Position numbers and translations under genes: made by a program. 53,998 nt of DNA from a virus. Taxonomy: Duplodnaviria; Heunggongvirae; Uroviricota; Caudoviricetes. The stretch lies in IMG/VR virus record IMGVR_UViG_2541047728_000014, one strand, 5' to 3'. Positions within the stretch are counted from its first letter, which is position 1. Every line of letters begins with the position of its first letter. Positions 27,453 through 28,025 of this stretch are shown here, piece after piece. The notes below the pieces were generated by a model that worked only from the letters and a program-made list of their open reading frames with translations, was not told the origin of the DNA and searched no databases.

Positions 27453-28025
27453 ATGGCTAAGGCTAAAGGCATTAAGTTGCCTCAATTCAAAGTCCCGCTC
27501 TTTGAGCATACAACCGTTTTCTTTTGCCCGACCCGCGAGATGTTCTATGAATTTTGCGAAAAGGCCGGAATACCAATCGAACCTGATTTCGAACTAGCTG
27601 GCGGTCTGACGTTAACCTGTACTGGTGAGACCGGCGGTAATTTCTACGTGATCGCAGTATTCAACAATGAGACTGGAACGCTGGTCCATGAATGCGCTCA
27701 CACTACATTCCACGTTTTAAGTGATGTAGGCGTCGTGGCGACCACTGATCCTACTCATCCTGCGAATGAGACTTACGCTTACATGGTTGGACGTATCTTT
27801 GACGCATTCTTCCCAATCCTGGCTGAATCAAACGAAGCACAGATCACAGCGATGCAGGCGGCTGAAGTCGTTGAGCAGGCGTTAGAAAAGGCAGAGCAGG
27901 CGACTGATGCAGCAGAACAGGCAGAGGAGCCGAAAGAAGAGAAAAAACCAGCTAAGAAAGGCAAACGTAAGCCGAAAGCAAAAGAGGCGCTTGTACCGCG
28001 CGTTATGAGCTTTAAGAGAGGGTAA
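27453..28025 (+). CDS. Hypothetical protein with HExxH motif and Lys-rich C-terminal tail
   Basis: 190 aa; TLVHECAHTTFHV (HExxH zincin-like motif); C-terminus EEPKEEKKPAKKGKRKPKAKE; GGAG RBS; no family recognised. Confidence 0.5.
   Translation: MAKAKGIKLPQFKVPLFEHTTVFFCPTREMFYEFCEKAGIPIEPDFELAGGLTLTCTGETGGNFYVIAVFNNETGTLVHECAHTTFHVLSDVGVVATTDPTHPANETYAYMVGRIFDAFFPILAESNEAQITAMQAAEVVEQALEKAEQATDAAEQAEEPKEEKKPAKKGKRKPKAKEALVPRVMSFKRG

Follow-up and report, generated by a model that had tools for sequence, protein, structure and literature searches.

Is the small protein encoded between the lysis and packaging genes of a tailed bacteriophage a metallopeptidase, and does it form a functional unit with the array of minute membrane peptides encoded beside it? 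These questions are raised by a gene found in the viral genome IMGVR_UViG_2541047728_000014 (Caudoviricetes), a stretch of 53,998 nucleotides (nt) that is referred to here, at its full length, as the window. The initial annotation described the product as a protein of 190 amino acids (aa) with a zincin-like motif, TLVHECAHTTFHV (residues 76-88), and a basic tail, KKPAKKGKRKPKAKE, and the coordinates, sequence, motif, and tail are all as it gave them. The open reading frame (ORF) at positions 27453-28025 is real, protein-coding, and conserved. Its coding status is certain because 120 clusters of close homologues are found in the prophages of Escherichia coli, and because the domain codons differ from those of the phages mEp021 and MagusPhagus by 29-31 synonymous changes and only 5-6 non-synonymous ones. 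On balance, the protein appears to be a stand-alone, minimal gluzincin-type metallopeptidase-like protein, encoded by an accessory gene of the late operon, and not a partner of the small ORFs (micro-ORFs) as a property of its family.

The Family and Its Predicted Domain

With residues 1-135 as the query, an exhaustive HMMER search recovered 149 family representatives (clusters at 50% identity, E<1e-3), nearly all of them stand-alone proteins of 110-140 aa (median length 122 aa), which include orf-129 of phage ST64T, hkcC of HK620, and an unannotated ORF of P22. The family is essentially restricted to phages and prophages, with 80 GenBank phage records versus eight plasmid records, most of the latter phage-like. 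In an alignment of 98 diverse members with a mean column identity of 18%, the only invariant columns are G51, H79, E80, H83, and E106, and the same set was reproduced in an alignment of 86 sequences, while P15 and Y110 are nearly invariant, the tyrosine being present in at least 90% of the members. The HExxH part of the motif quoted in the initial annotation is thus a property of the whole family, but H87, which lies within the same quotation, is kept only in close relatives. The glutamate found 23 residues beyond the motif (H83-E106), in an “NE” context, completes the signature of the gluzincins.

The structure predicted by AlphaFold2 from the family alignment has a predicted local distance difference test score (pLDDT) of 94.0 and a predicted template modelling score (pTM) of 0.87 for a construct of 135 residues, and of 96.4 and 0.88, respectively, for a model trimmed to residues 8-123. 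The predicted strands cover residues 11-13, 21-25, 51-57, and 63-69, the last two forming a beta-hairpin, and the predicted helices cover residues 28-38 (the backing helix), 44-48 (a short helix), 74-91 (which carries HExxH), and 103-134 (which has E106 at its start). The resulting beta-alpha-beta-beta-alpha(HExxH)-alpha(E) topology fits the minimal zincin metallopeptidase (MPTase) core fold, as defined in PMC5512222.

A zincin-type metal site and fold are likely, and the zincin-like character proposed by the initial annotation is supported by the family-wide conservation of H79, E80, H83, and E106, by the predicted topology, and by the recurrence of weak matches to zincins. All nine of the sub-threshold PDB profile matches, for example, are zinc metalloproteases, aligned on a strand and the HExxH helix. 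A Pfam scan of the 98 members (E<=0.1) matched 28 families, and among the first 25 listed, those matched by more than one member are all of the zincin type (SprT-like, in 12 of the 98 members; DUF4344, in two; and Peptidase_M50B, in two), with the single-member matches including the zincin families DUF5700, M76, and BSP amid approximately 19 unrelated ones. One source names the homologue P0118 “PolyVal Metallopeptidase superfamily domain”. A Foldseek search of the PDB gave no significant match (best E 0.37). The top 60 of a fold search included CapP, M32 carboxypeptidase, IrrE/PprI, 3e11, Dcp, and collagenase, none of the matches to solved zincins being significant.

The initial annotation could not place the protein in a known family, which is correct for the curated libraries but not for PHROG 1365, a family of unknown function that matches residues 1-132 on positions 3-125 of its 127-position profile (E=3.2e-31). 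The lack of any significant match to the 190-aa protein in Pfam, NCBIfam, PADLOC, and the PDB sequences weighs against the assignment, as does a comparison with the protease domain of the R388 ArdC protein, in which the family was aligned by hhalign with a profile of 30 sequences, all containing PF18818. The match reached 79% (E 1.6e-5, 75 columns), and fully shuffled or reversed profiles reached no more than 1%; shuffles that retained just the eight-column TLxHExxH block, however, scored 57-92%, and the alignment fails to pair E106 with E229 of ArdC. The signal is therefore that of the motif itself, and not independent evidence of membership, so the match was rejected as family evidence.

A motif-only hhalign signal would also fit a protein that is not a peptidase, with the H/E/H/E residues binding a metal for a structural role, for some other hydrolase activity, or for a regulatory or sensor function, in a fold that mimics the zincin topology. 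The lack of a curated family match and of a significant fold match to the solved zincins fits this interpretation, and HExxH is also found in families that are not peptidases, such as the TIGR04267 aKG-HExxH hydroxylase, which is a weak match here. The exact pattern of HExxH plus a glutamate approximately 23 residues away, placed on consecutive helices after a beta-hairpin and a backing helix, argues against it nevertheless, as do the recurrent weak sequence matches to zincin families, and a non-peptidase is considered to be quite unlikely.

Genomic Context

Judged from its sequence, the window is a mEp021-like (mEpimmI) temperate siphophage or prophage of E. coli, with 85-90% nucleotide identity across the region to mEp554, mEp010, mEp044, mEp013, mEp021, and MagusPhagus. 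The counterpart of the 190-aa gene in mEp021 is mEp021_49 (gp49), which is annotated as a “hypothetical protein”. A chromosomal prophage of E. coli 2017C-4173W12 carries the gene with 100% identity, and of 5426 complete E. coli genomes, 31 contain it, with every copy being chromosomal. The gene order in the window is holin, endolysin, Rz (with Rz1), a 268-nt gap, the 190-aa gene, the micro-ORF array, TerS, TerL, and portal.

The context of the family was surveyed at 142 loci, which form 29 clusters at 80% identity (the loci are cited below by their L numbers). In approximately 20 of the 29 clusters, the same strand carries a TerL-sized ORF at a distance of 0.8-3.4 kb downstream, with lysis-like transmembrane (TM) ORFs upstream. 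The terminases confirmed by Pfam just downstream from the gene include the Sf6-type TerS (window and L041), Terminase_2 (L073), the P22-type Terminase_6 TerL (L113 and L129), and the Terminase_3 TerL (L041). The next gene begins 2-4 nt past the stop codon of the family gene in L045 and L122, while the order in ST64T is 13-19-15-orf118-orf129(family)-orf134-gp3-gp2. The family is most often found where the lysis cassette meets the terminase genes, a late-operon accessory (“moron”) position that is also occupied by Rha, DUF2560, and small Lys-rich ORFs.

A number of genes were observed alongside the family in this slot. In L139, a gene of the PF18894 “PhageMetallopep” family (4567-5199, E=2e-43) lies between the family member and TerS, which places two small HExxH proteins side by side. 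In P22-like prophages, a Lys-rich ORF of 48-73 aa with no Pfam family is found between the family gene and TerS (L004, 5326-5520; L006, 5374-5595), and recalls the fused basic tail of the 190-aa protein, although this likeness is compositional only. An 80-aa DUF2560 gene (PF10834, E=1e-23) is located directly upstream from the family gene in L006 (4755-4997), and ORFs of 79-80 aa with a similar N-terminus adjoin the family gene, either upstream or downstream, in L110, L129, L126, and L140.

The family is also found in other contexts, with Arc and a tailspike (L057), a ParE toxin (L056), Rha/ANT and an integrase (L062), DNMK (L149), and in genomes with T7-type terminases (L046-L049). The hkcC gene of HK620, annotated as “unknown”, encodes a distant paralogue (32.5% identity) directly after the ejection-protein gene 16. 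In P22, an intact family ORF of 125 aa, with HECAH...NETYCY, follows gene 16, between sieA and orf59a/mnt (L143, 2489-2866, which corresponds to approximately 13849-14226 of NC_002371.2, + strand); it overlaps the annotated sieA promoter, and is not annotated as a coding sequence (CDS) in RefSeq NC_002371. Several P22-like genomes, such as ST160, SE1, and UAB_Phi20, have two matching places, and presumably carry both the orf-129 type, at the lysis/terminase junction (47% identity), and the hkcC type, after gene 16 (32.5%).

The Micro-ORF Array

The stop codon of the 190-aa gene is followed, at a distance of 2 nt, by the first micro-ORF of the window, MFTFLLGVFVGIAAAVILIYGH, which begins at 28028. 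The array is a conserved feature of the mEpimmI-type phages, but its number of copies varies from approximately five in mEp021 to seven in L055, 9-10 in the window, and 12 in MagusPhagus, and some of the peptides, such as MKELFDWLEVLTYCASFVACVYIINKY, are 100% identical across phages. The GenBank record of mEp021 annotates none of its micro-ORFs.

The initial annotation suggested, as a speculative link, that the protein and the peptides may form a single module. In such a module, for example, the peptidase would process, degrade, or regulate membrane peptides involved in the timing of lysis or in superinfection exclusion. The arrangement of the genes is consistent with this, given not only the 2-nt spacing of the first micro-ORF, but also the overlap of the equivalent ORF with the stop codon in L055, and the adjacency of gene and array in all four of the mEpimmI-type genomes examined. 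A single TM ORF of 64-67 aa is also found just upstream from the gene in five P22-like clusters, and the P22 paralogue adjoins sieA. Across the family, however, a downstream array accompanies the gene in only two of the 29 non-redundant clusters, those of the window and L055, both of the mEpimmI type, and in none outside these phages. The other clusters have at most one nearby TM ORF, of 56-67 aa, and the members in L122, L112, L113, L073, and L045 are spaced 2-4 nt from TerS, without a small TM ORF in the vicinity. In addition, the copy number of the array ranges from approximately five to 12 while the protein remains constant, and the peptides are membrane-embedded, whereas the 190-aa protein has neither a TM segment nor a signal peptide. 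Small TM ORFs are, in any case, to be expected beside a lysis cassette.

As the array is present in only two of the 29 clusters, the module is not supported as a property of the family, and it is quite probable that the accessory gene is not specifically tied to the micro-ORFs. The juxtaposition is constant within the mEpimmI group, so a link specific to this lineage retains a low probability, and the module as proposed is improbable.

The Linker and the Basic Tail

The acidic linker and the Lys/Arg-rich tail that follow the domain are lineage-specific additions. The linker is predicted to extend the last helix, given that the model helix 103-134 runs to the end of the 135-residue construct, and it has indels of 10-14 residues among close homologues, being the least conserved segment of the gene. 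The tail noted by the initial annotation is real, with K or R at 12 of the last 28 residues (by direct count), and is conserved within the mEpimmI-type subgroup. A different, yet basic, tail is found in P0113, P0116, and P0117, while basic or charged tails arise independently in P0121 (...VPRIARYKRG), P0163, and P0192 (...GVRRG), and 27 of 152 members have at least four K/R within the last 12 residues. Most of the family lacks such a tail, with only 14 of the 152 members having at least 15 residues beyond the domain. The P0121 tail, diverged yet similar, argues for a role of the tail at the protein level, which may be the binding of nucleic acid, targeting to the capsid, or the binding of a partner.

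The nucleotide identity with L055 is 86-100% over Rz, the gap, and the first ~60 nt of the gene, falling to 54-66% over the gene core (the 27513-27960 span, which includes the linker) and 22-60% in the linker, and rising again to 92% in the tail. Bordered on both sides by conserved sequence, the core forms a divergent cassette, and its divergence from L055 suggests either allelic exchange or the fast evolution of the catalytic domain. Strong purifying selection on the tail had been considered on the basis of its near-identity in P0118 of L055, a 59%-identical homologue, but was not upheld, since this profile of conserved flanks around a divergent core indicates that the conservation of the tail is partly an effect of mosaicism.

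Possible Function in the Infected Cell

If the protein is an accessory metallopeptidase, it would be a soluble, cytoplasmic, stand-alone domain of approximately 120 residues, with H79, H83, and E106 as the putative metal ligands and E80 as the putative general base, and extended in the lineage of the window by an acidic helical spacer and the Lys/Arg-rich tail. The enzyme would cleave a specific protein substrate in the infected cell, and may be anchored to nucleic acid by its tail, much as ArdC, Spartan, IrrE, and the CapP-type zincins are by their DNA-binding parts. The likeliest role would be that of a counter-defence or host-manipulating protease, a role that is assigned only tentatively. 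The broader proposal, in which the whole family consists of widespread, minimal phage zincins that act as counter-defence effectors by cleaving a host immune or regulatory protein, with the mEpimmI tail as a DNA tether, is somewhat more doubtful.

This role is suggested by the neighbours of some members of the family. A Sequestin gene is located immediately upstream from the family gene in L058 and L059, and Sequestin is an experimentally validated family of anti-Thoeris sponges (bioRxiv 2025.07.12.664507). In L061, the family homologue begins within a Tad2-like gene, and an Acb2/Tad1-type gene lies two genes upstream from the family gene in L150 and L151. In L061, L147, and L150, the family gene is always followed by an overlapping gene of approximately 295-307 aa with no Pfam match (4567-5460, 4563-5486, and 1135-2019, respectively), and these downstream partners are 77-85% identical to one another, which indicates that the three loci belong to a single phage lineage. 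The upstream gene or genes vary within this lineage, being Tad2-like, an Acb2/Tad1-type gene together with an ORF of 83 aa, or an unknown ORF of 121 aa. With variable cargo beside the family gene, the site behaves like a counter-defence hot-spot.

A number of points count against the proposal, however. As a single lineage accounts for both the Tad2 and the Acb2 contexts, there are two independent anti-defence lineages, and not three, and the proposed counter-defence role is a case of guilt by association alone. Most known anti-defence genes act early, and the gene of the window lies in a late operon. The literature on mEp021 gp49, hkcC, and phage anti-defence metalloproteases yielded no functional data on any member of the family, and the tail may act as a DNA tether only in so far as its composition is a guide.

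The accessory slot and its neighbours may also be read in the opposite sense, with the gene being expressed from the prophage as a defence or exclusion protease that protects the lysogen, like the Lit protease of prophage e14. This would be favoured by the moron-like position of the gene in mEp021, where it follows a predicted terminator, together with the position of the P22 copy, which adjoins the sieA and immI region, the ParE toxin context of L056, and the divergent cassette formed by the core. The consensus scan found no promoter-like site upstream on the + strand, however, there was no match in PADLOC, and where the neighbours are informative, they encode anti-defence and not defence functions. 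The T7-type phages are generally virulent, and the protection of a lysogen makes little sense for the members found in T7-type terminase contexts (L046-L049) if those phages are virulent. This role is considered to be very unlikely.

The proximity of the gene to the terminases raises a further possibility, that of a packaging or virion protein made late, which would either work with the terminase on the DNA or be loaded into the capsid through its basic tail, to act in the next host. The gene is found directly upstream from TerS of at least four types and in a late operon, and the HK620/P22 paralogue comes right after the ejection-protein gene 16. The basic tail would also suit such a role, as would the separate Lys-rich ORFs that P22-like prophages have between the family gene and TerS. 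One source applies the “PolyVal” label to a homologue, and the MPTase domains of packaged phage polyvalent proteins have been proposed to act after ejection (PMC5512222). The likeness to ArdC/PolyVal is found at the level of the motif only, however, most members have no tail, and the members in L056, L057, and L062 are far from the terminase genes. Mass spectrometry of the mEp021 virion recovered 16 proteins, the only two outliers being placed upstream from the lysis genes. The gp49 protein is annotated as “hypothetical”, and not as a “virion structural protein”, which also speaks against this role, although the argument is drawn from annotation, and a low-copy protein could escape detection. 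A packaging or virion role is considered to be unlikely, and the reading of the protein as an accessory metallopeptidase is retained.

Features of the Locus

Table 1. Coordinates of the features of the 190-aa gene and its neighbours in the window (residue numbers refer to the 190-aa protein).
Feature	Position	Strand	Details
Rz	26714-27184		Rz1 embedded at 26904-27116
Rz-to-gene gap, 268 nt	27185-27452	+	Includes the AGGAG Shine-Dalgarno
CDS, 190 aa, homologue of mEp021 gp49	27453-28025	+	ATG start; TAA stop at 28023-28025
Predicted minimal gluzincin-like domain, residues ~8-125	27474-27827	+	
HECAH (H79-E80-x-x-H83)	27687-27701	+	Predicted metal ligands H79 and H83; predicted general base E80; mid-helix
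N105-E106-T-Y-A-Y110	27765-27782	+	E106, predicted third metal ligand, at the start of the “glutamate helix”
A/E/Q-rich acidic linker, residues 126-160	27828-27932	+	Length-variable
Lys/Arg-rich C-terminal tail, residues 161-190	27933-28022	+	Ends in ...KKPAKKGKRKPKAKEALVPRVMSFKRG
Micro-ORF array	28028-28856	+	~9-10 single-TM ORFs of 22-34 aa, between the 190-aa gene and TerS
TerS, Sf6 type	28867-29352	+	PF20901, E=1.4e-37; recurrent downstream neighbour of the family
TerL	29349-30833		After TerS

The non-coding interval that the initial annotation placed before the gene is exactly 268 nt, from the end of Rz to the start of the gene (Table 1), and its Shine-Dalgarno sequence, AGGAG, is at 27439-27443, 9 nt upstream (5') from the ATG. 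A consensus scan of the + strand of the gap found no sigma-70-like promoter and no intrinsic terminator, and the mEp021 record annotates a predicted terminator in the corresponding gap. The gap is strongly conserved among the relatives of the window, as part of a larger block formed by Rz, the gap, and the 5' end of the gene; its RNA fold is ordinary (z = -0.85), and a search of Rfam found no match above the threshold. Given its place in this block, its ordinary RNA structure, and the lack of an Rfam match, the gap was rejected as a candidate for a special non-coding element.

Two small ORFs were observed in this interval, one of 56 aa on the - strand (27163-27333), which spans the conserved half of the gap, and the other of 30 aa on the + strand (27368-27460), which overlaps the start of the 190-aa gene. 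In MagusPhagus, two small CDSs are annotated in the corresponding gap. The 3' half of the gap is variable between relatives, with an insertion of ~58 nt in mEp021. The related phage L055 has an HNH endonuclease gene (PF13392, 3752-4273) between the endolysin and Rz, which is absent from the window.

Significance

The family is an uncurated one of a known sort, that of the small zincin-like metallopeptidase domains of mobile elements, and the 190-aa protein is an ordinary member of it. Small zincin-like proteins are a common and unstudied cargo of the tailed phages, and this family, which is present in classic phages of Salmonella and E. coli, is annotated as “hypothetical” throughout, and is absent from the RefSeq annotation of P22. 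A protease that proved to be active against one particular host protein would bring proteolysis into a phage counter-defence repertoire that is based mostly on sponges and nucleases, and would explain the recurrent accessory slot at the lysis/terminase junction. Should it not be a protease, its re-annotation as a predicted minimal gluzincin-like domain would still be useful. Members are found in two model phages, P22 and HK620, and in the mEp021 group, which can be cultivated, so the family is open to direct testing. The micro-ORF array deserves study on its own.

Comparison with Known Systems

Membership of PF18818, SprT-like, PhageMetallopep, or ImmA/IrrE is not supported for this family. 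In the MPTase-PolyVal/ArdC domain (PF18818), as in the 190-aa protein, HExxH is found on one helix and the glutamate ligand on the next. The metal ligands of ArdC, H201, H205, and E229, were defined experimentally, and the spacing from H205 to E229 is 24 residues (PMC7213743), in comparison with 23 in the family described here. Both are carried by mobile elements, and in both the domain is accompanied by a part that may bind nucleic acid. Unlike ArdC, however, the 190-aa protein has no ArdC-N domain, and lacks the insert of ~29 residues that precedes the glutamate helix in ArdC. The family is also phage-restricted and stand-alone, with members of approximately 120 aa, whereas the polyvalent proteins and ArdC are multidomain or found on conjugative plasmids. 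PF18818 was not matched by the 190-aa protein (E<=10), and does not figure among the first 25 of the 28 Pfam families matched by the 98 members (E<=0.1).

The concept behind the SprT-like, Spartan, and Wss1 proteins (PF10263), in which a small zincin is coupled to a basic region that binds DNA, is a shared one. The SprT-like matches found in 12 of the 98 members are weak and sub-threshold (best E 9e-4), and the 190-aa protein itself had none in Pfam scans with a maximum E of 10 and 0.1. In an hhalign comparison with a single sequence, that of the E. coli SprT (YggI), the score was 4% and the motif was not aligned. SprT-type proteins carry a Zn-binding sub-domain, which is lacking in the 190-aa protein. 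The third conserved ligand is a glutamate in the latter, in contrast with the histidine of Spartan (PMC7213743).

The IrrE/PprI, ImmA, and CapP-type proteins differ from the 190-aa protein in having extra C-terminal domains, and the 190-aa gene is located in a late operon rather than in the immunity region. No sequence-family match to the ImmA/IrrE type was found, and there is no adjacent gene for a helix-turn-helix repressor substrate in the window. The PF18894 “PhageMetallopep” proteins are similar in forming a further family of small phage proteins with HExxH and no assigned function; no Pfam match to PF18894 was found in the family, and hhalign scored 1%, with the HExxH helix alone aligned, in what was a weak test, given that a single PF18894 sequence was used. 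The minimal stand-alone zincins with solved structures are among the closest systems, and include PDB 3e11, a “predicted zincin-like metalloprotease” of 114 aa. The minigluzincins are further examples of minimal, stand-alone zincins for which structures have been solved.

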